Notes under the pieces: generated by a model | What the model saw: the letters and a program-made list of their open reading frames with translations, nothing else | What the model was told of the DNA's origin: nothing | The model's database searches: none | Made by a program: the position numbers and the translations under genes | Source: an uncultured Pseudomonadales bacterium | GTDB taxonomy: Bacteria > Patescibacteriota > Microgenomatia > UBA1400 > MFAQ01 | Length of the DNA stretch: 64,000 nucleotides | Reading direction: 5' to 3' | Assembly: GCA_964487665.1 (NCBI GenBank) | Contig: CAZARR010000002.1 | Location: 8,597 to 72,596, forward strand | Part shown: piece by piece, positions 30,807 to 54,149 of the stretch | How positions within the stretch are numbered: the stretch's first letter is position 1 | Layout: each line of letters starts with the position of its first letter

Positions 30807-33140
30807 GTGACAAAGAGAAAAATCATCCTATTGGTCGCATGCATTTTCATCGTCGTGGTGGCGACAATAGGTTTATTTATTTTTCTTTTGTTCAAAGACG
30901 TTCCCAACCCCCAGAAACTTACCAAATCTCCCGCTCCTGTGAGCACTCAAATATTTGATAGAAACAGCAAATTGCTCTATGAAGTTTATGTGGATCAAAA
31001 CCGCCTTCCTGTAAATATCAATGACGTACCAGATTACCTAAAAAAAGCTACCGTATCAATCGAAGACAAAAATTTTTATAAACATCATGGCCTGGACACG
31101 CGCGGAATATTACGCGCGGCTTTCAAATTAGCTACCGGCGGTCGCCTTGAGGGTGGTTCTACCATTACCCAACAATTAGTCAAGGTCGCTATCCTTTCCG
31201 ACAACCGGCGTACTGTCACTAGAAAAATTCGCGAGGCAGGACTAGCTATTTTTACCGAAATTCTTTATTCCAAAGATCAAATTCTCGAACTCTACCTCAA
31301 TCACGCCCCTTATGGAGGTACGGCTTATGGAATCGAAGCTGCATCAAAGGTATTTTTTGGAAAAACCTCCAAGGATCTTAATCTGGCCGAATCTGCCCTT
31401 TTGGCCGGACTACCCCAATCACCCACCAAATATTCCCCTTTTGGTGCCAACCCAGAGCTAGCCATAAATCGACAACACTTAGTTTTAGATCAAATGGCTC
31501 AGGACGGATATATCACCAAAGAACAAGCCGAGGAGGCAAAAAACCTTCCCCTGCATTTTGCTAACAATACCAAGTCTATCAAGGCACCCCACTTCTCGCT
31601 TATGGTCCGTGACCTTTTGGTGGATCGATACGGTGAAGATCGTGTTAATCTCGGTGGGCTTAAAGTGACAACCACTCTCGATCTTGATCTTCAGGAATAT
31701 GCCCAAGCCACTGTCAGTAGCGAAATAAACAAGGTTAAAAAATACAAAATTTCTAACGGAGCCTCCCTTATTACCCGTCCAAAAACCGGGGAGATACTCG
31801 CGATGGTTGGTTCAAAAGACTATTTCAGCTCTGATATCGATGGTAACGTCAACCTCACCACTCGTCTCCGCCAACCGGGAAGTTCAATTAAGCCAATTAA
31901 TTACGCTGTCGGACTACTTCGCGGATGGACAGCGAGCACCATGTACTTAGACATCCCTACTTGTTTTAGTGTCACCAACCAAAAACAATATTGCCCCAAG
32001 AACTACGACAACTCATTTCACGGACCAGTGCAAATGCGCTTTGCTTTAGGCAACTCCTACAATATTCCCGCCGTCAAGCAGCTAGCCCTTAACGGAATCG
32101 ACAGTTTTATCGCCACTGCCAGTGCTATGGGGATAACCACCTGGACAGATCCGAGCCGATACGGTCTATCTCTAACCCTTGGTGGCGGTGAGGTTACCAT
32201 GAGCGATATGTCTACCGCATTCGGTACCTTTGCCAATGCCGGAGTTACCGTTCCGCTAAATCCGATACTGAAAGTCGAAACATACAACGGAGAGGTATTA
32301 GAAGAAAACCGACCCAACGATCTTGCCGACGTCGTAAACACCTTGCCTCAAGAATGGTCTGACTTCTGGCAAAAGAGGAGTGAAATCGCCTCTGATATTT
32401 CTTACCAGTGCACTCAGTACAACCACCAATGCCTTCGTGTCTCACTCCCCGAAGGAGTCGCTTATATTATTTCTCACATTCTTCTCGACAACAACGCACG
32501 CACCGGAGCCTTTGGGCCCAACAGTCAACTCCTAATCCCCAACAAAAGTGTCTCAGTAAAAACTGGTACAACCAACGACCTACGGGACAACTGGACTATC
32601 GGATTTACACCTGACATTCTCGTTGCAACTTGGGTTGGCAACAACGATAACACACCAATGAGTTATGTCGCCTCCGGAGTCACGGGTGCATCATCAATCT
32701 GGCAAGCTCTTATGAGACGCGCGCTTAAACAACAGCCAGACCACTTTCCCAAACAACCAAACGACGTAGAAAGTAAAGTCATTTGTGCCAATACTGGGCT
32801 TGTTCCCAATGACCCCAATTCATGCCCAACAAGAACCGAACTATTTATCAAGGGTGTGTATCCACCCAATCAAATTCCCGAGAGAAAGCAAATTTGGGTG
32901 CGAAGATCCGATAAATACCCCCTATTACCCGGGGATACCACCGTTGACCTTGACCTCGAAGAACACACTATTATCAACGATCCGTTTACCCACGACTTTT
33001 GCCTCGACTGTACTTATCCTGTAAATGATAAGGGGACAACTCAATGGCCCACTTACAATATCAACTACGACACTTTTCGCATGTCCCCGCCATCTCCTCG
33101 AGACTACCTTGTCCTAGGCACCCCCACGCCCCAACCGTGA
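30807..33140 (+). CDS. class A penicillin-binding protein (bifunctional glycosyltransferase/transpeptidase), copy 1
   Basis: N-terminal TM, GT51 motifs EDKNFYKHHG and GGSTITQQLVK, transpeptidase SxxK (GSSIKP), SYN, and KTGTTNDLRDNWTIGF. Confidence 0.9.
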   Translation: MTKRKIILLVACIFIVVVATIGLFIFLLFKDVPNPQKLTKSPAPVSTQIFDRNSKLLYEVYVDQNRLPVNINDVPDYLKKATVSIEDKNFYKHHGLDTRGILRAAFKLATGGRLEGGSTITQQLVKVAILSDNRRTVTRKIREAGLAIFTEILYSKDQILELYLNHAPYGGTAYGIEAASKVFFGKTSKDLNLAESALLAGLPQSPTKYSPFGANPELAINRQHLVLDQMAQDGYITKEQAEEAKNLPLHFANNTKSIKAPHFSLMVRDLLVDRYGEDRVNLGGLKVTTTLDLDLQEYAQATVSSEINKVKKYKISNGASLITRPKTGEILAMVGSKDYFSSDIDGNVNLTTRLRQPGSSIKPINYAVGLLRGWTASTMYLDIPTCFSVTNQKQYCPKNYDNSFHGPVQMRFALGNSYNIPAVKQLALNGIDSFIATASAMGITTWTDPSRYGLSLTLGGGEVTMSDMSTAFGTFANAGVTVPLNPILKVETYNGEVLEENRPNDLADVVNTLPQEWSDFWQKRSEIASDISYQCTQYNHQCLRVSLPEGVAYIISHILLDNNARTGAFGPNSQLLIPNKSVSVKTGTTNDLRDNWTIGFTPDILVATWVGNNDNTPMSYVASGVTGASSIWQALMRRALKQQPDHFPKQPNDVESKVICANTGLVPNDPNSCPTRTELFIKGVYPPNQIPERKQIWVRRSDKYPLLPGDTTVDLDLEEHTIINDPFTHDFCLDCTYPVNDKGTTQWPTYNINYDTFRMSPPSPRDYLVLGTPTPQP

Positions 33141-34312
33141 ACAGAACATTGGCCCTGGCGACTTCGATACTTTTATCTATAGTCCTCCTCAGTCTGGTTG
33201 TGGTCTACAAAGTTCTACCCACCCTACCTCTACTTTCACCATCCGCTGTAATTTCGGATCTAGAGAATATGTTCAACTCCCGCTCCAATCAATTTCAAGT
33301 TTACGGATTTTTACCATTTTGGACACTTAATATGGTCGACACCACAGACCTTAAATCACTCACCCATCTAATATATTTCGGCATCGAAATTTCCTCTGAC
33401 GGGACACTAAAGTCAAACCTGAACAAAAAAGAATTAGAACCTGGCTGGGTTCAATTAAATTCTGCGAGTCTCAAAAAACTTCGCACCAATTTCCCTAACC
33501 GCAGTATTATCGTCGTCCGTAATATGAATTCGCAAGACATTGAGTCAATACTCAATAACCGCCAAGCATTTGAGCTATCCATCGAACAAATTATCAATCT
33601 TGTCAAAGTCAACAAATATCAAGGTGTCAATATTGACTTCGAGTCCTCAGATAGCTTTTCTCCAGAAACCCAAACCAACTTCACCAAGTGGATTTCCAAA
33701 CTGGTTGATGTCTGCCACTCCCAAGTTAAACATTGTGAGGTTAGTATCGACATTAATGCTGACTCCGCAGCCAAAGACCGTCTTTACCAACTAAAACCAT
33801 TAGGGTTAATAGCCGACAGGATCATTGTCATGGCATACGATTTTTACTATCGAAACAGCACCAAGTCAGGCCCTGTTGCTCCGTTAACCGGCAAGTGTAA
33901 AACACCAGAACAGATTAACTGCCTGGACTACGATATCAAGACAGCTATTTCTGATATCAGCCGTAGTGTTTCCCCCCATAAATTGATTTTAGGTATTCCA
34001 ACTTATGGCTATCTATGGACTACCACTGATGATTCCTTTCTATCAAATACGACGAGTCGCGGAGTATTTATAAGCCAAAGAGACATAGCGGCCTTGTTTA
34101 ATTCAGACAGCCCCCCAATTGCTTCATGGTCAGCACACACGCTAACTCCATACGCCATCATCAGGGAGAAAAAAGTTGTCAAACAAATTCACTACGAAAA
34201 TTCGCAATCAATTCAGGAAAAAATTAGATTCGCCCAAGCTAATGGCTTGGCAGGCATTGCCTATTGGGCGATTGGCTATCAAGAGCAATCCTTTTTGCCC
34301 CTTTTACCCTAG
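33137..34312 (+). CDS. glycoside hydrolase family 18-like protein with N-terminal membrane anchor
   Basis: YGFLPFW and LTHLIYFGIE with a DGxDxDWE-like GVNIDFES motif. The start is taken as GTG at 33137, overlapping the PBP stop as GTGA (TTG at 33149 is the alternative); the track start 33044 lies inside the PBP gene. Confidence 0.7.
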   Translation: MNRTLALATSILLSIVLLSLVVVYKVLPTLPLLSPSAVISDLENMFNSRSNQFQVYGFLPFWTLNMVDTTDLKSLTHLIYFGIEISSDGTLKSNLNKKELEPGWVQLNSASLKKLRTNFPNRSIIVVRNMNSQDIESILNNRQAFELSIEQIINLVKVNKYQGVNIDFESSDSFSPETQTNFTKWISKLVDVCHSQVKHCEVSIDINADSAAKDRLYQLKPLGLIADRIIVMAYDFYYRNSTKSGPVAPLTGKCKTPEQINCLDYDIKTAISDISRSVSPHKLILGIPTYGYLWTTTDDSFLSNTTSRGVFISQRDIAALFNSDSPPIASWSAHTLTPYAIIREKKVVKQIHYENSQSIQEKIRFAQANGLAGIAYWAIGYQEQSFLPLLP

Positions 34313-34337
34313 GTCAACGCTTGCTATTATATTCTCA

Positions 34338-36467
34338 ATGCCAGATACAACGATTTCTGGTTCAAAATTCAATAAATTAAACAAGTTACTATATCTCATC
34401 GGTCACCCATTTTTTCCGATACTTGTTTTTGTTATTCTAAAGTTAGCCAATACTTTTCACATAGTAAATCGTAGACGTCTAATTGCAACTCTATTCGTAA
34501 TTGCCATCACTCTCATATTCACCACTCAACTTAGACAACTAATTGTTAACCTGCCCAATCCGGAAAACCTCAAGTCAAAACCCCCCTTGCTTTCAACTAA
34601 AATTTTCGATCGACATGGCAACTTGCTCTACACTTTTTATAATTTAGAAAACCGCTCTTTGATAGAGCTTTCGGACTTGCCAAACTACGTACCCTTAACT
34701 TTCATCGCTATAGAGGACAAAAATTTCTACAAGCATAGGGGAATTTCGATCACAGGCATATTTAGAGCAGCCAGGAACAATCTACTCAAATCAGAATCTT
34801 TGCAGGGGGGATCAACCATAACTCAACAGCTTGTTAAAAACAGCCTTCTCACCAAAGATAAAACCTGGCAAAGAAAACTCAAAGAAATAATCCTCGCCGT
34901 TTTGGTGGAGAGACGGTATTCAAAACAAGACATTATTGAAATGTATCTCAATCAGGTTAATTTTGGCGGCCCAATCTATGGAATCGAAGAAGCTTCGCAA
35001 CAATATTTCGGTATTCCCGCCCGAAACCTCTCTCTTGCCCAGTCTGCCTTCCTAGCTGGTCTTCCCAAAGCTCCCACCTTGTTTTCTCCCTACGCAGATA
35101 ACTCTAGTGATCCCAAACAAAGACAGGTAACCATTCTTAATCGAATGCACGAACTCAAACTGGTAAGCGATGACGCTTATCAAAGCGCAATCCAACAGAC
35201 AATCATCATCAAACCCAATCAAAGAAAAATTATCGCTCCTCACTTTGTTATGTATATATACGATCTTTTAAAAGAAAACTTCTCCGAAAGTATAGTCCGG
35301 GAGGGAGGGCTTCGGGTTTATACGACACTTGACCAGAATATTCAGCAACTTGCCCAAGACGAAATTAACCAGGAGATTACCAATCTTGGCAAAAAATATC
35401 ATGTCAACAACGGAGCTTCACTGGTAATAAATCCTGCCACAGGGGAATTGTTAGCTATGGTTGGCTCGCTAAATTACTTTGACACCAAGATCGATGGACA
35501 GGTAAACCTCACCACAGCCCTCCGCCAACCTGGAAGTACCGTCAAACCGATTAATTACTCTCTAGCCCTCGAGTCAGGGATGACACCGGCATCCACCATC
35601 GAAGATCGGCCCATACAGATAAAACTGGATGATGGAACTACCTGGGTACCCAAAAATTATGACAATCGCTTTCATGGACCCCTGACCCTACGTAGCGCGC
35701 TAGCAAATTCATACAATATTCCAGCCATCAACACACTCTCAAAGTTTGGTCCAACACAAATGGCAAGCTTAGCAAAAGAGATGGGTCTTACCAGCTGGAA
35801 CAACCCGAATCGTTTTGGTCTATCGATAACCTTAGGAGCGCTCGAAACAAGTCTCCTCCAACTTTCTCAAGCCTACTCGGTTTTCGCAAATTACGGTAAA
35901 CAAATCCCCATTATTTCCATCACCAAGATTACCGACAGCCAAAATCGAGAGTTAACAATTAGCCCATGTAAACTCGCCCACCTGCCAGATAACTGTTTTG
36001 GTAAACAAATTATCAGCCCAGAAACTTCGTACACTATTACAGATATCCTTTCCGATAATTACGCACGAGCAAAAGCATTTGGTTTAAATTCTGTTCTCAA
36101 TACATCCCCACTAAGAACAATGGTTAAAACCGGAACAAGCAACAATTTAAGGGACAACTGGACCATTGGCTTTACACCAGATATTCTCGTTGCCACTTGG
36201 GTGGGAAACAATGACAACACCCCAATGAATGCAATTGCATCAGGAATAACTGGAGCCTCACCCATTTGGAATAGATTAATAACGAAACTCGCCAACCCGG
36301 CAACCCCCTGGTTTACTCCCCCTTCGAATCTTGCCAGAATCTTTTATTGCCCGGCCACCAATTCACAGGCTTGCCCAGACTGTCAAAACCGATATGAATA
36401 CTTTAGTGTCGACAAAAAACCTCGTCCCTGTCCTCCAAAAACTCAACAAGTAACTCAGAACTCGTAA
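34338..36467 (+). CDS. class A penicillin-binding protein, copy 2 (paralog)
   Basis: TM anchor, EDKNFYKHRG and GGSTITQQLVK, GSTVKP, and KTGTSNNLRDNWTIGFTPDILVATWVGNNDNTPM, near-identical to the copy-1 motif. The start is the ATG at 34338, just after the GH18 stop. Confidence 0.9.
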   Translation: MPDTTISGSKFNKLNKLLYLIGHPFFPILVFVILKLANTFHIVNRRRLIATLFVIAITLIFTTQLRQLIVNLPNPENLKSKPPLLSTKIFDRHGNLLYTFYNLENRSLIELSDLPNYVPLTFIAIEDKNFYKHRGISITGIFRAARNNLLKSESLQGGSTITQQLVKNSLLTKDKTWQRKLKEIILAVLVERRYSKQDIIEMYLNQVNFGGPIYGIEEASQQYFGIPARNLSLAQSAFLAGLPKAPTLFSPYADNSSDPKQRQVTILNRMHELKLVSDDAYQSAIQQTIIIKPNQRKIIAPHFVMYIYDLLKENFSESIVREGGLRVYTTLDQNIQQLAQDEINQEITNLGKKYHVNNGASLVINPATGELLAMVGSLNYFDTKIDGQVNLTTALRQPGSTVKPINYSLALESGMTPASTIEDRPIQIKLDDGTTWVPKNYDNRFHGPLTLRSALANSYNIPAINTLSKFGPTQMASLAKEMGLTSWNNPNRFGLSITLGALETSLLQLSQAYSVFANYGKQIPIISITKITDSQNRELTISPCKLAHLPDNCFGKQIISPETSYTITDILSDNYARAKAFGLNSVLNTSPLRTMVKTGTSNNLRDNWTIGFTPDILVATWVGNNDNTPMNAIASGITGASPIWNRLITKLANPATPWFTPPSNLARIFYCPATNSQACPDCQNRYEYFSVDKKPRPCPPKTQQVTQNS

Positions 36468-42155: not shown

Positions 42156-42452
42156 TTAGTCAAACCCCAACTCCGCTTTTGCTTCGTCACTCATCATATC
42201 CGGCACCCATGGTGGATCCCAAATTAGTTCTGTCCTTACATCACCTATACCCTTCACTTTTTTTACTTCCGTTTTTACCATGATATCAATCATGCTTGCC
42301 AGTGGACAACCAGGCGATGTCAAAGTCATCCTTACCACCGTGTCACCACTCTTTCTTACACTGATCTTATAAATTAACCCCAAGCTGACAATATCAATCC
42401 CCAACTCGGGATCCACCACCCTCCTCAAAGCTTGTTTTATCTCTTTAATCAT
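42156..42452 (-). CDS. DUF59/MIP18-family Fe-S assembly protein (SufT-like)
   Basis: VVDPELGIDIVSLGLIY and the TSPGCP motif; 98 aa. Confidence 0.75.
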   Translation of the reverse strand: MIKEIKQALRRVVDPELGIDIVSLGLIYKISVRKSGDTVVRMTLTSPGCPLASMIDIMVKTEVKKVKGIGDVRTELIWDPPWVPDMMSDEAKAELGFD

Positions 42453-43135
42453 CGTTTAAACAACCACCCACCAACCACTAGCATTAATGCTCCTAGTATC
42501 AACCTAATCCACCTTTCACTTTTGTGCTCCCATTCCTTCAATAGCATTAGCTCTTTGCCCCTCTCTACCAATATCAACACTACCACCAAGGGAGACACAA
42601 ACACAACGTTGTAATACAAAAATAACATTAGCAATTTAGGAATCCCCAAGCCAGAGTTTGCAATAGCTATAGCAGTTCCCACATAAAGGGGCATCATACA
42701 CGGGGACCCCATCAAAGTTGTCAGCATCCCTGCCAAAATCGCCACATACACATTCGACCGTGACATCAAACGCCCAAACTGTTTATCCAACCCCTCTGGC
42801 ATCCGCACCTTTAACGATGAGTCAGGCCAAAAACCACCAATCAATTGCAATATTCCAAAAAAGATTACTCCACCTCCAGCAATCCGAAACAAATACCTTG
42901 CTAACACTGTTCTTTGCAAAAAAAAGGCCAAGTTGTAAAAAAACAACCCTACCAATAGATAAGACATAAACACGCTAGCAATATAAATCAAACCCAACCG
43001 AAGTACTCTCGACTGCCCCTTTTTATTCTGTACCCCAAAAACCAGCAGGTATCCCAAAAACATCACCATTAGCCCTATACCACAAGGGTTTAGACCACCC
43101 AACAATGCCGAAACTGTCAAAGTAGCGACGTTCAT
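42449..43135 (-). CDS. ccdA: cytochrome c-type biogenesis protein CcdA / DsbD-beta-like membrane thiol-disulfide transporter
   Basis: Two conserved Cys in TM segments (GGLNPCG and GSPCMMP) of a 6-TM protein. Confidence 0.85.
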   Translation of the reverse strand: MNVATLTVSALLGGLNPCGIGLMVMFLGYLLVFGVQNKKGQSRVLRLGLIYIASVFMSYLLVGLFFYNLAFFLQRTVLARYLFRIAGGGVIFFGILQLIGGFWPDSSLKVRMPEGLDKQFGRLMSRSNVYVAILAGMLTTLMGSPCMMPLYVGTAIAIANSGLGIPKLLMLFLYYNVVFVSPLVVVLILVERGKELMLLKEWEHKSERWIRLILGALMLVVGGWLFKR

Positions 43136-43767
43136 CTCGTCTTAAGTTTTTCCTTTACTTTAGAAAGCACCAGATTACTCGCAACCATTTCTCCATCTAT
43201 ATAAAAAGTAGGTGTGCCCGATAACCTGATTCTATTACCCAAATTAATATCCTCATTTACCGCACTTGCCACATCTTCCGACTTCTGTTTTGCCACAAAA
43301 TCGCTTTCTACCATGCCTAGACCGGTAGCATAACCAACGACCGCTCGATCAAGCTTATCTCCATCCAAACTTTCCCACTCGCTTTGTTTGTCAAACATTA
43401 CTTCCAACATATCCCATCCCTTCCCCAACTTTGTGGCTGCCTCAACCGAACGAGCTCCAAATAACGAATTCTTGTGAACAGTCGTCAACGGATAATGTCG
43501 GTAGACAAACGTCACTCCAGCCATCGTCCTTAGCTCCTTTCCTATTGGCTCGGCCGTCTTGCAAGCTGGGCACTGAACATCAGAAAACTCCACTACCAAT
43601 ACTTTCTCCTGTCCATTTTTACTTACTAACCTCGCCCCCGTTACCAAATCGTCGCTAATTTTCGCCACCCCCCCGTCTCCGGATAATCGTGACAACCCCA
43701 CCACCACCAGGACTACCACTAGCAAGCTTCCAAGTAATACCCCAATAGTCAATTTCAAATTAATCAT
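43132..43767 (-). CDS. DsbA-family thiol:disulfide oxidoreductase, membrane-anchored (canonical domain order)
   Basis: TM anchor, VVEFSDVQCPACK active site, RHYPL, then LSGTPTFYIDGE cis-Pro loop near the C-terminus. Confidence 0.8.
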   Translation of the reverse strand: MINLKLTIGVLLGSLLVVVLVVVGLSRLSGDGGVAKISDDLVTGARLVSKNGQEKVLVVEFSDVQCPACKTAEPIGKELRTMAGVTFVYRHYPLTTVHKNSLFGARSVEAATKLGKGWDMLEVMFDKQSEWESLDGDKLDRAVVGYATGLGMVESDFVAKQKSEDVASAVNEDINLGNRIRLSGTPTFYIDGEMVASNLVLSKVKEKLKTR

Positions 43768-51148: not shown

Positions 51149-51898
51149 ATGAACTGCCCCCAATGTTTGCATTTTTTTTCTACCACCCCAGTTCACTTGC
51201 CTGACCATGAAGAAATTAACATCTATGAATGTTTCTACTGCGGAGGACACTTTCTTCCCCCATTAATTGCCAACCTTATCGACAAACACCAAGCCAAAAA
51301 TATTGACTCGGTCATTCCCAAGGCAAATATTCCATACCCCACCTCACCAGATTGTCCCATCTGTCGGCAGCGCCTTATTGCCATCAGTGCGGACTCCGTT
51401 CCTCGCTCGATTATCGTCTATGCCTGCCCCAGTGACCACGGTCATTACTTTCCCTCAAGAGAATTCTACAAATTTAAAATAGCCCAAGAGGCAAAGATAA
51501 CCTACCACCAACTTTGGGGAATACCCATCAAATCGGCCTTTGCTGTTATCTTGCCAGTACTTTTCTTTACTCTTGCCGTCTCGATGGGACCTACTACCGT
51601 AAACTACTTCAAAGCGCGCCAAGAGTCTCGTGTCAGTGCCTCATCACCAGTTAGCCATCCGTTGATCATAGTCCAGGACAATAACCAAGTTATTATCTCT
51701 TTTACTACCAAGACTCCAACAACATCACACATTCTTCTTTCTTCACCCAACCAAGGTACCAGCAACATTACAGTCTCCTCAACACCTCGCACTAGTCATG
51801 TCATCACCACTGAAACACTAATGACCAAAACACAATATCAGTTTACTATCTCCACCCCCGACTTCACCTCAGAAACCTACACCTTCCTCACCAACTAA
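51149..51898 (+). CDS. zinc-ribbon membrane protein, hypothetical
   Basis: Two Cys4 knuckle pairs (NCPQC..CFYCGG; CPICRQ..ACPSDHGH), one TM helix, and a Thr/Ser-rich beta-strand-like C-terminal region. Confidence 0.4.
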   Translation: MNCPQCLHFFSTTPVHLPDHEEINIYECFYCGGHFLPPLIANLIDKHQAKNIDSVIPKANIPYPTSPDCPICRQRLIAISADSVPRSIIVYACPSDHGHYFPSREFYKFKIAQEAKITYHQLWGIPIKSAFAVILPVLFFTLAVSMGPTTVNYFKARQESRVSASSPVSHPLIIVQDNNQVIISFTTKTPTTSHILLSSPNQGTSNITVSSTPRTSHVITTETLMTKTQYQFTISTPDFTSETYTFLTN

Positions 51899-52636
51899 CT
51901 ACGCCCCCATCATATAGTCGTGCATCTCCCAAAACTTACCCTGTTCTCCCGCGCATTCACTCGCTTCTGCCGATTTCTGCGCATAAGAATGGAAAGGCAA
52001 CGGGTTATGTCTATACTCAACACTTAACTGGCTGCCATACTTCTTTTCCAATGCCTGAGTAGTCGGAAAAGCCCTCTTACAAAATGGGCACTCAAAATCC
52101 GAGAACTCCACCATCTTAACCTTGGCATTCTTATCTCCACGCACATAGCCTACATTTGTTTTCACACTTACTCTGGCTGAAGAATTACCCCCAACCTTAT
52201 CACCAGAACCGTTCTTAATCTCTGCGTCAATTATTTTTTCAAATTCCCCCTGCGGCTGAGCACCAACCAACATAACCCCATTAATAAAAAAGCTTGGTGT
52301 GCCAGACACCCCCAAAGACCCACCATACGCCAAGTCGTCTTTTACCTTCTGTTCATATTTTCCCGAATCTAAACAAAAATCAAACTTATCTCCATCCATA
52401 CCCAAATTTCGCGCCTGCATCTTCAAATTCGAAACCTGCAGCGGTGACGGTGCAGCTGAACCATTCCCTGCCTGTTGTGCCGTCGGCGCCGTGGGGGCGA
52501 CACCTTTCTGTAACAAATCAACCTGAGAAGACAATCGACCTACCCAAAATGCCCCACCTATAAGCAACGCCACCACAATTGGGGGGTACAACCATGCAAT
52601 TGGATTCTGATTTGAAACTGTTTGTTTTTCACTCAT
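51899..52636 (-). CDS. DsbA-like thioredoxin-fold protein with apparently circularly permuted domain order, membrane-anchored
   Basis: After the TM anchor comes the segment that is normally C-terminal (GVSGTPSFFINGVMLVGAQPQGEFEKII), then a Gly-rich linker, then the normally N-terminal half (AKVKMVEFSDFECPFCKR ... RHNPLPFH ... GKFWEMHD), then the stop. The start is the ATG at 52636 (AAGGGA SD upstream) rather than the track start 52717. Confidence 0.6.
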   Translation of the reverse strand: MSEKQTVSNQNPIAWLYPPIVVALLIGGAFWVGRLSSQVDLLQKGVAPTAPTAQQAGNGSAAPSPLQVSNLKMQARNLGMDGDKFDFCLDSGKYEQKVKDDLAYGGSLGVSGTPSFFINGVMLVGAQPQGEFEKIIDAEIKNGSGDKVGGNSSARVSVKTNVGYVRGDKNAKVKMVEFSDFECPFCKRAFPTTQALEKKYGSQLSVEYRHNPLPFHSYAQKSAEASECAGEQGKFWEMHDYMMGA

Positions 52637-52676
52637 CGTCCCTTGATAATACCATAAGTTTATAATTGCTCTCAAC

Positions 52677-53663
52677 ATGGCCAACCCCCGCTGGATCAAG
52701 AACCTCGCCTTCGCCAATTACTTCGAAATTTTACTGATTACCGCCACAATTACCGTCATATCGACAAGAATATTTTTGCAGACCACCCATTTTCAGTTGT
52801 CTCCCGGCGACTTACACATTGCTCACGTTCTTTGGGGGGGTCTATTTATGTTTATCAGTATTTTTCTCCTCCTCGGTTTTCTGAACAAATCGACAATGTT
52901 GCTAGGAAGCCTATTCGGGGGGGTTGGTTTTGGACTATTTGTCGACGAAATAGGTAAGTTTGTCACCAAGGACAATAATTATTTCTATCAGCCAGCTGTT
53001 GCCCTAGTGTACTGCGTCTTCGTTGTTATTTACCTTGTTTTTAATTATTTAAACAAAAAACCCATTTCCACCGACACCGAATACCTTTCCAATGCCATTG
53101 AGGGTATCAAACATCTCTATACCGATGAACCAACATCCGACAGAGTCGAGTCGATTCGTAAATTACTTTCTTTAGCCAAACAGAACCTACACTCCCGCCT
53201 ACTCGCACAATTTGTCAGTTCCATTTCCCCAAAAACACCATCTTCCTCCAAAAGAATTACCTCCACCCTCAAACATCTCTATCACTTACTTAAAATCAGT
53301 CGCTCTCCCCGCAGGTTGTCAATTCTCGTCACTATTTATTTTTCATTACACTCCCTGATCAACCTTGGCCAAACAATCATTACCACCTGGCAACCACGAT
53401 CGGGGGTTTCTCAGTGGGGGGAGTGGTTATCAACCTTGGTGGCCAACGGTCTAGTACTTTTTGGGCTAATTCGGTTACGCAAATCTCGTCTCGCATCCTA
53501 CAAAATTTTAAAAACCTCAATCCTCATCTCCATTTTTATCACCCAAATTTTTACCTTTTATCTTGACCAGCTTTCAGCCCTCTTCGGTCTGGCTATCAAC
53601 TTGGTTTCACTAATCGGGATTAACTATCTCATTGACACACGAACCAAATTTGCCTATTCTTAA
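52677..53663 (+). CDS. hypothetical polytopic membrane protein
   Basis: Multiple predicted TM helices and no recognisable motif; 328 aa. Confidence 0.4.
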   Translation: MANPRWIKNLAFANYFEILLITATITVISTRIFLQTTHFQLSPGDLHIAHVLWGGLFMFISIFLLLGFLNKSTMLLGSLFGGVGFGLFVDEIGKFVTKDNNYFYQPAVALVYCVFVVIYLVFNYLNKKPISTDTEYLSNAIEGIKHLYTDEPTSDRVESIRKLLSLAKQNLHSRLLAQFVSSISPKTPSSSKRITSTLKHLYHLLKISRSPRRLSILVTIYFSLHSLINLGQTIITTWQPRSGVSQWGEWLSTLVANGLVLFGLIRLRKSRLASYKILKTSILISIFITQIFTFYLDQLSALFGLAINLVSLIGINYLIDTRTKFAYS

Positions 53664-53672
53664 CTAACTGAC

Positions 53673-54149
53673 ATGAATAAAAAAACCCTTGCTGTATTGT
53701 CGCTCATCTGCTTACTTTCCTTAGGTCTCACCTACAAAACCTTATTCTCCAGCAAAAAACAAAACACCACACCCATAGCTAACCCGACCAACTTTCAAGA
53801 TTTATCTAACCAGGCTGTCCAAGGTGGACCCCGCGATAACCCTGAGGAGGCATACAAAACCTATTCCCACGACGCTTTCGTCAAGGATCCTGCCAAAAAA
53901 CGAGTCATCTTTTTCACCTCCCCCTCCTGCACTAGTTGCAAGCCAATCGAAAAAGAACTTACCGATTCCAAAGCTAGCATTCCCACTGACTACACAATAT
54001 TTGTCGCCGACCTCACTCAAGAAAAAGACCTAGCCGCCAAACTCGGGGTAAATTACCAACACACTTTTGTCGTTGTCGACCAAAACGGACAAAAAACCCT
54101 CAGTTGGAATGGGGGAGGTTTGCGCGAACTCCTCATTAACCTAAGATAA
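53673..54149 (+). CDS. secreted thioredoxin-like protein (CxxC)
   Basis: Signal peptide/anchor, then VIFFTSPSCTSCKP, a thioredoxin-fold CxxC in the expected context; 158 aa. Confidence 0.6.
   Translation: MNKKTLAVLSLICLLSLGLTYKTLFSSKKQNTTPIANPTNFQDLSNQAVQGGPRDNPEEAYKTYSHDAFVKDPAKKRVIFFTSPSCTSCKPIEKELTDSKASIPTDYTIFVADLTQEKDLAAKLGVNYQHTFVVVDQNGQKTLSWNGGGLRELLINLR

Follow-up and report, generated by a model that had tools for sequence, protein, structure and literature searches.

The window analysed here, by which the whole stretch of 64,000 nucleotides is meant, carries on its minus strand a gene for a DsbA-like protein in which the two halves of the canonical fold are encoded in swapped order. 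In the list of open reading frames (ORFs) it appears as 51899..52717 (-), with 272 codons from a TTG. Translation probably starts at the ATG at 52636 (MSEKQ...) rather than at the TTG at 52717, because the corresponding Met is the first residue of homologues, and because the stretch added by the TTG start runs into a divergent ORF at 52677-53663. The JGI gene call on a sister contig, described below, uses the same reading frame. Residue numbers of the permuted protein count from ATG 52636 unless labelled as ORF residues. The features of the gene, some of them taken from a model predicted with AlphaFold2 (AF2), are as follows:

51899..52636, minus strand: complete permuted DsbA-like gene, 245 aa plus a TAG stop at 51899-51901 (ORF list and sequence)
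52637..52717, minus strand: 5' extension of the mechanical ORF, 27 codons from the TTG start; missing from the close homologues read, overlaps ORF 52677-53663, probably untranslated
52532..52600, minus strand: N-terminal transmembrane anchor, residues 13-35, IAWLYPPIVVALLIGGAFWVGRL; long helix at 14-43 in the AF2 model
52442..52531, minus strand: end of the juxtamembrane helix and low-complexity Pro/Ala/Gln tether, residues 36-65, between the anchor and the point where the fold now begins
52211..52441, minus strand: C-terminal half of the canonical DsbA fold, encoded first, residues 66-142 (alpha4, alpha5, alpha6, beta4-beta5, alpha7), segment LQVSNLKMQARNLGMDGDKFDFCLDSGKYEQKVKDDLAYGGSLGVSGTPSFFINGVMLVGAQPQGEFEKIIDAEIKN
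52373..52375, minus strand: Cys88 in helix alpha5, invariant; proposed structural-disulfide partner of Cys228
52295..52303, minus strand: cis-Pro loop G112-T113-P114, within GVSGTPSFFING; invariant in 102 permuted homologues and in a Chloroflexota clade
52148..52210, minus strand: linker of 21 residues, 143-163, GSGDKVGGNSSARVSVKTNVG, between the two Pfam stretches
51902..52147, minus strand: N-terminal half of the canonical DsbA fold, encoded last, residues 164-245 (beta1, beta2, CPFC-alpha1, beta3, alpha2, alpha3), segment YVRGDKNAKVKMVEFSDFECPFCKRAFPTTQALEKKYGSQLSVEYRHNPLPFHSYAQKSAEASECAGEQGKFWEMHDYMMGA; followed by the TAG, so that the chain ends 5 residues past FWEMHD
52079..52090, minus strand: active-site motif C183-P-F-C186, read from the sequence; both Cys invariant
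51953..51955, minus strand: Cys228 in helix alpha2, invariant; proposed partner of Cys88

The linker GSGDKVGGNSSARVSVKTNVG runs from the ancestral C-terminus, where alpha7 ends, to the ancestral N-terminus ahead of beta1. At the other end of the protein, the stretch ahead of the hydrophobic helix is short and polar, the helix is the only one at the N-terminus, and the N-termini of homologues are rich in Lys and Arg. Given these Lys/Arg-rich N-termini and the one N-terminal helix, the positive-inside rule would anchor the protein N-in, C-out, i.e., with its fold outside the cytoplasm. In the alignment of 102 permuted homologues, F30, G33, R34 and L35 of the transmembrane and juxtamembrane stretch are invariant, and S36 and V39 nearly so. 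Conservation of this kind (residues 30-39) is unusual for a plain anchor and hints at a sequence-specific contact within the membrane. The tether varies in sequence and length among homologues, and the predicted local distance difference test score (pLDDT) of the AF2 model falls below 50 at residues 45-57.

Swapped half-domains and the predicted fold

The initial annotation of this DNA had placed the cis-Pro half before the CPFC half and had taken another gene of the window, at 43132-43767, as the canonical copy. Both readings are borne out by Pfam. In the permuted protein, ORF residues 96-163 fall on the C-terminal half of the DSBA profile (positions 123-190 of 191; whole-protein E 3e-19), while ORF residues 189-269 fall on the N-terminal half of the Thioredoxin_4 profile (positions 4-86 of 165; whole-protein E 8.6e-22). 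No colinear match of an N-half followed by a C-half to the DsbA/Thioredoxin_4 family (PF01323, PF13462) is obtained. The copy at 43132-43767 is colinear with the same profiles (residues 58-208 on profile positions 2-190) and is, for this reason, a valid canonical comparator. NCBIfam holds no model for the permuted form and returns only a below-cutoff match, again as two swapped stretches. The same pattern is seen against the DsbA of Corynebacterium diphtheriae (4PWO), to which the family profile aligns (E 7e-26) as profile 167-252 on chain 67-154 and 72-145 on 166-240. When the halves are re-pasted in canonical order, the de-permuted sequence aligns to 4PWO in one stretch (E 1e-19; query 7-164 on chain 73-240), and the sole gap, of about 8 residues, falls exactly at the junction. 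By these alignments the permuted protein misses nothing of the DsbA fold except part of one loop; the homology of both halves is unambiguous at the level of sequence, and the protein is to be regarded as a permuted member of the family, not as a non-member.

The swapped order is shared by a large set of homologues, and a search for orthologues of the same order had been proposed in the initial annotation. When a collection of 5.8 billion proteins was searched with the window protein, 7622 matches were obtained, the best 120 of which were examined. About 100 of these 120 are single-domain proteins of 223-290 aa that align at 50-64% identity with 88-100% colinear coverage; in them the GTP loop stands ahead of the CxxC, and 4-12 residues follow FWEMHD. 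Those that carry a name are assigned to Candidatus Collierbacteria, the Microgenomates group or the Patescibacteria group. Across the alignment of 102 permuted homologues C183, C186, G112, T113, P114 and 27 other positions are invariant. These proteins stem from JGI, ENA, NCBI and Logan assemblies. A sister contig from JGI (Ga0172278_1779, 157 kb) is 98.75% identical to the window in DNA over 20.8 kb; it represents another strain or assembly, its genes are arranged alike, and its permuted dsbA differs at 2 nucleotides only. Other permuted genes from the Patescibacteria side come from contigs between 0.12 and 0.69 Mb long.

A scan of species-representative genomes returned mostly canonical and tandem proteins, so that the taxonomic range of the permuted order given here is a lower bound. 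Among the matches listed in that scan, the order occurs in an Amesbacteria metagenome-assembled genome (MAG; L002), in the MAGs L001 and L003, in a 'Woesearchaeota' MAG (L010) and in two Chloroflexota, L022 (Thermoflexus) and L031 (Dehalococcoidia). With the Thermoflexus protein as query, all 120 of the best 120 matches are permuted (254-327 aa, 55-98% identity). They include proteins of Dehalococcoidia, Tepidiformaceae and Anaerolineae and a RefSeq entry, WP_322795186.1 (Tepidiforma sp.), and some are encoded on contigs as large as 1.08 and 2.3 Mb. Both active-site Cys and the GTP loop are invariant in these 120 homologues as well, whose annotation goes no further than 'DsbA family' or 'thioredoxin domain-containing' protein. 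The permuted proteins thus comprise a Patescibacteria/Microgenomates clade that includes the window protein, a separate and larger Chloroflexota clade, and isolated cases. A census of architectures was made with half-domain hidden Markov models on all the sequences fetched, and its counts are those of that set:

C-half then N-half (permuted): at least 233 proteins
Canonical single domain (NC): 38
Tandem of 2 domains (NCNC): 49
Tandem of 3 domains (NCNCNC): 124
Tandem of 4 domains: 34
Tandem of 5-6 domains: a few

Several of these sequences present features of their own. L001 (CAYTOI010000009.1) is labelled 'uncultured Pseudomonadales' and L003 (CAYWJV010000004.1) 'uncultured Gammaproteobacteria'; both labels look wrong, as the two MAGs carry a Collierbacteria-like permuted dsbA and neighbours like those of the candidate phyla radiation (a 7TM_transglut/ATP-grasp cluster). 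The L003 gene (4959-5738) encodes a longer linker with its own Cys pair (CTIYSTDLQKYC), which could form an additional disulfide within the linker. In the Chloroflexota linker (approximately residues 170-200 of protein P0270), P173, Y179, S180, F194 and I196 are invariant, and a helix at 181-188 and an extra strand at 194-196 are predicted with pLDDT >95, pointing to a structured addition to the fold.

The initial annotation had offered, as the alternative to a natural permutation, a local misassembly or the collapse of a tandem duplication. In this account the permuted ORF would be an assembly artefact or a decaying pseudogene, in which the swapped order is only apparent and reflects the collapse of a tandem duplication or a frameshift in an array of two genes. 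Tandem DsbA genes (L063) and multi-domain arrays do occur in relatives, and some MAGs hold frameshifted or fragmentary arrays. Against it stand the at least 233 proteins of the same architecture from unrelated assemblies and sequencing projects, and the preservation of the arrangement on the independent, 98.75% identical contig and on contigs of megabase scale. Moreover, catalytic and core residues are invariant at an overall identity of 50-60%, which denotes purifying selection. The stop codon also abuts a conserved convergent gene, leaving no space for a lost C-half, and a remnant of such a half 3' of the stop is excluded on the same ground. Recurrence of the order in independent assemblies refutes the misassembly, and an artefact or pseudogene of any kind is scarcely credible.

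The structure prediction that had been suggested as a further check closes a full DsbA fold at high confidence. The AF2 model of the window protein, computed as a single chain from an alignment of 102 sequences, has a mean pLDDT of 89 and a predicted template modelling score of 0.73, with pLDDT >90 for essentially all of residues 61-245. The C-half comprises alpha4 (68-77), alpha5 (82-90), alpha6 (95-107), beta4 (115-118), beta5 (121-124) and alpha7 (129-142), and the N-half beta1 (164-167), beta2 (173-179), alpha1 (184-203), beta3 (204-210), alpha2 (219-230) and alpha3 (235-244). All the elements expected of a thioredoxin fold with an inserted helical domain are therefore present in the model, which matches DsbA structures only. 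The CXXC lies at the N-terminus of alpha1, where C183-P-F-C186 opens helix 184-203, and the GTP of the cis-Pro loop (112-114) stands directly ahead of strand 115-118. Global superposition of the model would place the CPFC beside the cis-Pro loop in the folded protein.

In a Foldseek comparison with the PDB, a single entry matched with E <1e-3, namely 1UN2, 'circularly permuted CPDSBA_Q100T99', which aligns over 194 columns at a template modelling (TM) score of 0.67 (target-normalised). Natural DsbA-like structures align over only 80-85 columns each, i.e., over one half. The AF2 model of the Chloroflexota protein P0270 (pLDDT 86.8) behaves in the same way, with 1UN2 on top at 196 columns and natural DsbAs at 86-100. 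The 1UN2 chain was verified to consist of Q100-K189, GGGTG and A1-T99 of Escherichia coli DsbA. The family profile runs along it in one stretch that spans the junction (profile 81-195 on residues 16-131), while wild-type E. coli DsbA is matched as two swapped pieces; in the profile alignment the linker GSGDKVGGNSSARVSVKTNVG matches the position of GGGTG. Since the profile runs across the 1UN2 junction and the start of alpha4 (L66-V68) aligns to S104 of E. coli DsbA, the natural break and that of the laboratory permutant share the alpha3/alpha4 loop and are only a few residues apart.

It could be argued that the half-domains pair between chains, in dimers or oligomers formed by domain swapping, or find their counterpart in another protein, in which case no monomeric permuted DsbA would exist. 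A flexible linker between half-domains permits such swapping in principle, AF2 was given single chains, and oligomeric DsbA-like proteins are known (ScsC, BcfH). The monomer model is, however, confident across the domain, linker flanks included, and superposes over 194 columns on 1UN2, whose linker has merely 5 residues. The natural linkers are longer (62-87 residues from GTP to CxxC across lineages), ample for intramolecular closure, so that pairing between chains appears very unlikely. A natural circular permutation of the DsbA/thioredoxin fold, as proposed in the initial annotation, is what the order in homologues, the invariant catalytic residues, the AF2 fold and the match to 1UN2 support. 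The order of the halves and its conservation, the fold predicted for the protein and the place where the chain is cut all speak for a genuine and functional gene, which very probably encodes a naturally circularly permuted DsbA/BdbD-type (Thioredoxin_4/DSBA) oxidoreductase.

An additional cysteine pair and the origin of the permutation

Besides the CPFC, two further cysteines, C88 (FDFCLD, in alpha5) and C228 (SECAGEQ, in alpha2), are invariant in the 102 permuted homologues. Among 454 non-redundant domain units, the equivalents of C88 and C228 are both present in 83 and both absent in 370, with one exception. The pair is found in 14/14 permuted representatives versus 69/440 canonical units, an enrichment that is only suggestive, as the canonical sample is biased by retrieval and the permuted representatives are not all independent. 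In Mycobacterium tuberculosis Mt-DsbA, a structural disulfide, C140-C192, joins alpha2 and alpha5 of the helical domain (PMC3853704), and a C97-C146 disulfide of the helical domain is mentioned for Wolbachia alpha-DsbA1 in the same paper and in the title of PDB entry 3F4T. Measured from the CXXC and from the cis-Pro, the pair of the window protein is spaced as in Mt-DsbA to within 1-5 residues. C88 and C228 probably form a structural disulfide that staples the two ends of the chain; it would bridge the break because it ties alpha4-alpha5, in the N-terminal segment, to alpha2-alpha3, in the C-terminal segment. A pre-existing alpha2-alpha5 disulfide may thus have pre-adapted this sub-lineage to tolerate the cut, and the testable idea follows that a disulfide already spanning a future break predisposes a fold to permutation.

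The accepted route to a circular permutation is a tandem duplication followed by the loss of the outer half-domains. In the present case, the permutation most likely arose from tandem duplicates by the loss of the first N-half and the last C-half, to judge from the sequences; such an origin fits because the subfamily is rich in tandem arrays of 2-6 domains, and for the same reason the family offers a natural test of the duplication-truncation model. In an exhaustive search of representatives, the best 150 were all tandem DsbA arrays, of 384-1196 aa, because summed scores outrank single domains, and the search yields no count of the permuted family. Proteins of 3-6 DsbA domains (P0121-P0269), reaching 1196 aa, occur often, for the most part in Myxococcota-type assemblies, and their biology as disulfide catalysts with several domains is apparently unexplored. 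In tandem proteins with 2-6 repeats, from Myxococcota and others (P0004, P0010, P0052, P0121-P0269), the C-half of one domain, the linker and the N-half of the next follow one another as in the permuted protein (36-47% identity, 73% of the query covered). The two-domain proteins P0004 and P0010 hold the permuted order internally with 73% colinear coverage at 44-47% identity. Unlike the permuted protein, these tandem proteins have complete domains at both ends, and their C-half(i)-N-half(i+1) segment is what an intermediate would be expected to contain if the permutation came about by duplication and deletion. In Patescibacteria, dsbA genes are also found side by side in tandem (L063). Among the fetched sequences, architectures of the intermediate type (NCN, CNC) are mostly contig-end fragments or frameshifts, none of them tied to the Patescibacteria clade, and no tandem protein among those examined is shown to be a direct ancestor of the window protein's clade.

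How many times this happened is a separate matter. A neighbour-joining (NJ) tree was built from de-permuted units over 168 match columns, with 454 representatives (≤62% identity) and 100 bootstrap replicates. The Chloroflexota permuted clade is recovered at 91% and the core Patescibacteria clade at 84%, and all permuted proteins together are monophyletic in 0/100 replicates. The nearest canonical unit shares 56% identity with the window protein, against ≤49% (median 41%) for Chloroflexota permuted members, and the nearest neighbours of L002, L003 and L010 are canonical or tandem units, at 57-62%. By lineage, the spacing from GTP to CxxC is 74, 85, 66, 87 and 62 residues, and the tail after FWxMHD, in the same lineage order, is 7, 13, 15, 8 and 7 residues. 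On the basis of the non-monophyly, the identity values and these lineage-specific linker and tail lengths, a recurrent origin of permuted DsbAs is somewhat favoured, even though the deep nodes of the tree are weakly resolved and the tree method is simple, which weighs against multiple origins.

A single ancient permutation, spread by descent and horizontal transfer and with no independent events of duplication and truncation, would explain that every lineage is cut in the same alpha3/alpha4 loop and that every one carries the extra Cys pair, and the poor resolution of the deep nodes leaves room for it. It would have to be reconciled with the absence of a common permuted clade in any replicate, with the two separately supported clades, with the closeness of the window protein and of L002, L003 and L010 to canonical or tandem units, and with linkers and C-terminal tails whose lengths are particular to each lineage; it is considered unlikely. 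Returning to recurrent origin, it can be proposed, quite tentatively, that natural DsbA permutation occurred at least three times (in the Microgenomates core, in Chloroflexota and in isolated Patescibacteria/DPANN-type cases), always in the alpha3/alpha4 loop that is permissive in the laboratory and only in the sub-lineage with the alpha2-alpha5 disulfide, and that the accompanying shift of the tether may alter contact with a partner or substrates.

Gene neighbourhood, function and known relatives

The neighbouring genes that bear on the context of the permuted gene, together with the canonical copy, are the following:

51149-51898, plus strand: convergent neighbour with an N-terminal zinc ribbon (CPQC, CFYC, CPIC), one transmembrane helix and a Ser/Thr-rich domain
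52677-53663, plus strand: divergent gene for a 328-aa multi-pass membrane protein, without a Pfam or NCBIfam match
53673-54149, plus strand: anchored (membrane or signal) thioredoxin with CTSC, two genes away from the permuted dsbA; the gene after it encodes an undecaprenyl-diphosphatase (BacA)
42449-43767, minus strand: canonical divergent DsbA (CPAC, 211 aa) and a 228-aa multi-pass membrane protein, overlapping by 4 nt, at the end of a SUF Fe-S assembly operon

The Ser/Thr-rich domain of the convergent neighbour resembles the N-terminal, FN3-like domain of purple acid phosphatases. The stops of this gene and of the permuted dsbA abut, with zero intergenic bases, and the pairing is kept at the homologue P0002. 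The divergent gene at 52677-53663 is also present on the sister contig and is not found beside more distant homologues. Collierbacteria-type permuted genes adjoin a 7TM_transglut/ATP-grasp cluster, and those of Chloroflexota an HHH_5-domain gene, possibly RuvA-like. Beside the homologues examined there is no conserved functional partner gene, and close relatives have only housekeeping neighbours in common. The 228-aa membrane protein contains two Pro-Cys motifs (NPCG, SPCM), gives a weak match to PF11139, and looks like an electron conduit of the CcdA/DsbD type. Because a canonical DsbA, this CcdA-like protein and an anchored thioredoxin are also encoded, the organism appears to possess several extracytoplasmic redox proteins.

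The plus strand displays a strong negative GC skew throughout the window, of -0.21 to -0.42 in 4-kb bins, including the plus-strand genes at 30807-36467 and 51149-51898. This is much stronger than the typical replication skew of bacteria.

The function most likely to be ascribed to the permuted protein, given its sequence, is that of an anchored extracytoplasmic thiol-disulfide oxidoreductase. Its membrane helix would tether it outside the cytoplasm. The chain would enter the fold at alpha4 and proceed through alpha5, alpha6, beta4 with the GTP loop, beta5 and alpha7; after the linker of 21 residues it would continue with beta1, beta2, the CPFC on alpha1, beta3, alpha2 and alpha3, where it stops. 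The folded result would be a complete DsbA fold in which the CPFC adjoins the cis-Pro loop, and because this arrangement is re-created, disulfide exchange with exported proteins is predicted, as in the canonical anchored DsbAs (BdbD, MdbA, Mt-DsbA). In the sequence, the membrane tether joins the fold at the helical domain rather than at beta1. Such relocation from the thioredoxin domain to the helical domain may change the way in which the enzyme meets its partner or substrates.

The direction of the exchange is less certain. The protein has an Asp three residues before the first Cys of the CPFC and a Thr before the cis-Pro, features associated with isomerases, and no VKOR/DsbB-like partner is found in the 64-kb window or beside the homologues examined, whole genomes not having been searched; both observations weigh against a DsbA-type oxidase. 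A D-x-x-C-x-(Y/F)-C motif with a Thr before the cis-Pro has been called isomerase-like, and in vitro Mt-DsbA showed isomerase and no oxidase activity (PMC3853704). The main role of the permuted protein might accordingly be that of a disulfide isomerase or reductase fed with cytoplasmic electrons. The motif shared with isomerase-like Mt-DsbA and the lack of a quinone-linked partner in the places mentioned would agree with it, and so would the CcdA-like membrane protein encoded in the window, although that gene adjoins the canonical DsbA copy and is operonic with it, not with the permuted gene. It also speaks against this role that the closest solved relatives, C. diphtheriae DsbA/TsdA and Bacillus subtilis BdbD, are described in PDB entry titles and in abstracts as oxidising or oxidative-folding enzymes. 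A role as isomerase or reductase is a possibility to be kept in mind, if a doubtful one.

Circular permutation of DsbA is a textbook experiment of protein engineering. In the searchable literature, no natural permuted DsbA was found, only engineered permutants; subscription journals lay outside this scope, and a prior mention is possible. The initial annotation had called a natural permuted DsbA unusual. This stands in so far as the form is apparently undescribed in that literature, and fails in so far as it is common in databases under the name 'DsbA family protein'. The natural permuted DsbA is thus real, widespread and apparently undescribed; its topology is that of the engineered cpDsbA_Q100T99, and it does not constitute a new kind of system. 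The occurrence of the same permutant, cut in the same loop, in hundreds of proteins and apparently with more than one origin offers a test, provided by nature, of the points at which a fold can bear to be cut. Since permuted proteins split profile models into two half-matches, they are under-described by domain annotation and by structure searches based on sequential alignment. The permuted gene would also identify the main anchored DsbA-like enzyme of Patescibacteria and Chloroflexota, as far as sequences tell.

Among natural proteins, the nearest known relatives are C. diphtheriae DsbA/TsdA (4PWO, 7UNN), B. subtilis BdbD (3EU3) and Mt-DsbA (4IHU/4K6X), which belong to the same sequence subfamily. 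These Gram-positive-type DsbAs share with the window protein an active site of the DFECPFC type, the Thr-cisPro, the helical insertion and the N-terminal anchor, and Mt-DsbA also has the alpha2-alpha5 structural disulfide that the proposed C88-C228 pair resembles. They differ in that their N-half precedes their C-half and their anchor lies ahead of beta1, whereas in the window protein the halves are swapped and the anchor is on the helical domain. In topology the closest counterpart is cpDsbA_Q100T99 (1UN2), which stems, as far as the papers citing it indicate (PMC3281007, PMC11348275), from the random-permutation study of Hennecke, Sebbel and Glockshuber in 1999. Both chains open at alpha4 of the helical domain and finish past alpha3, and in both a linker connects the former termini. 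The engineered protein is man-made and soluble, with a GGGTG linker of five residues and a CPHC active site, and is approximately 14% identical to the window protein; the natural permutants, in contrast, carry a membrane anchor, linkers of 20-45 residues, the CPFC and the extra Cys pair, and belong to the Thioredoxin_4 subfamily.

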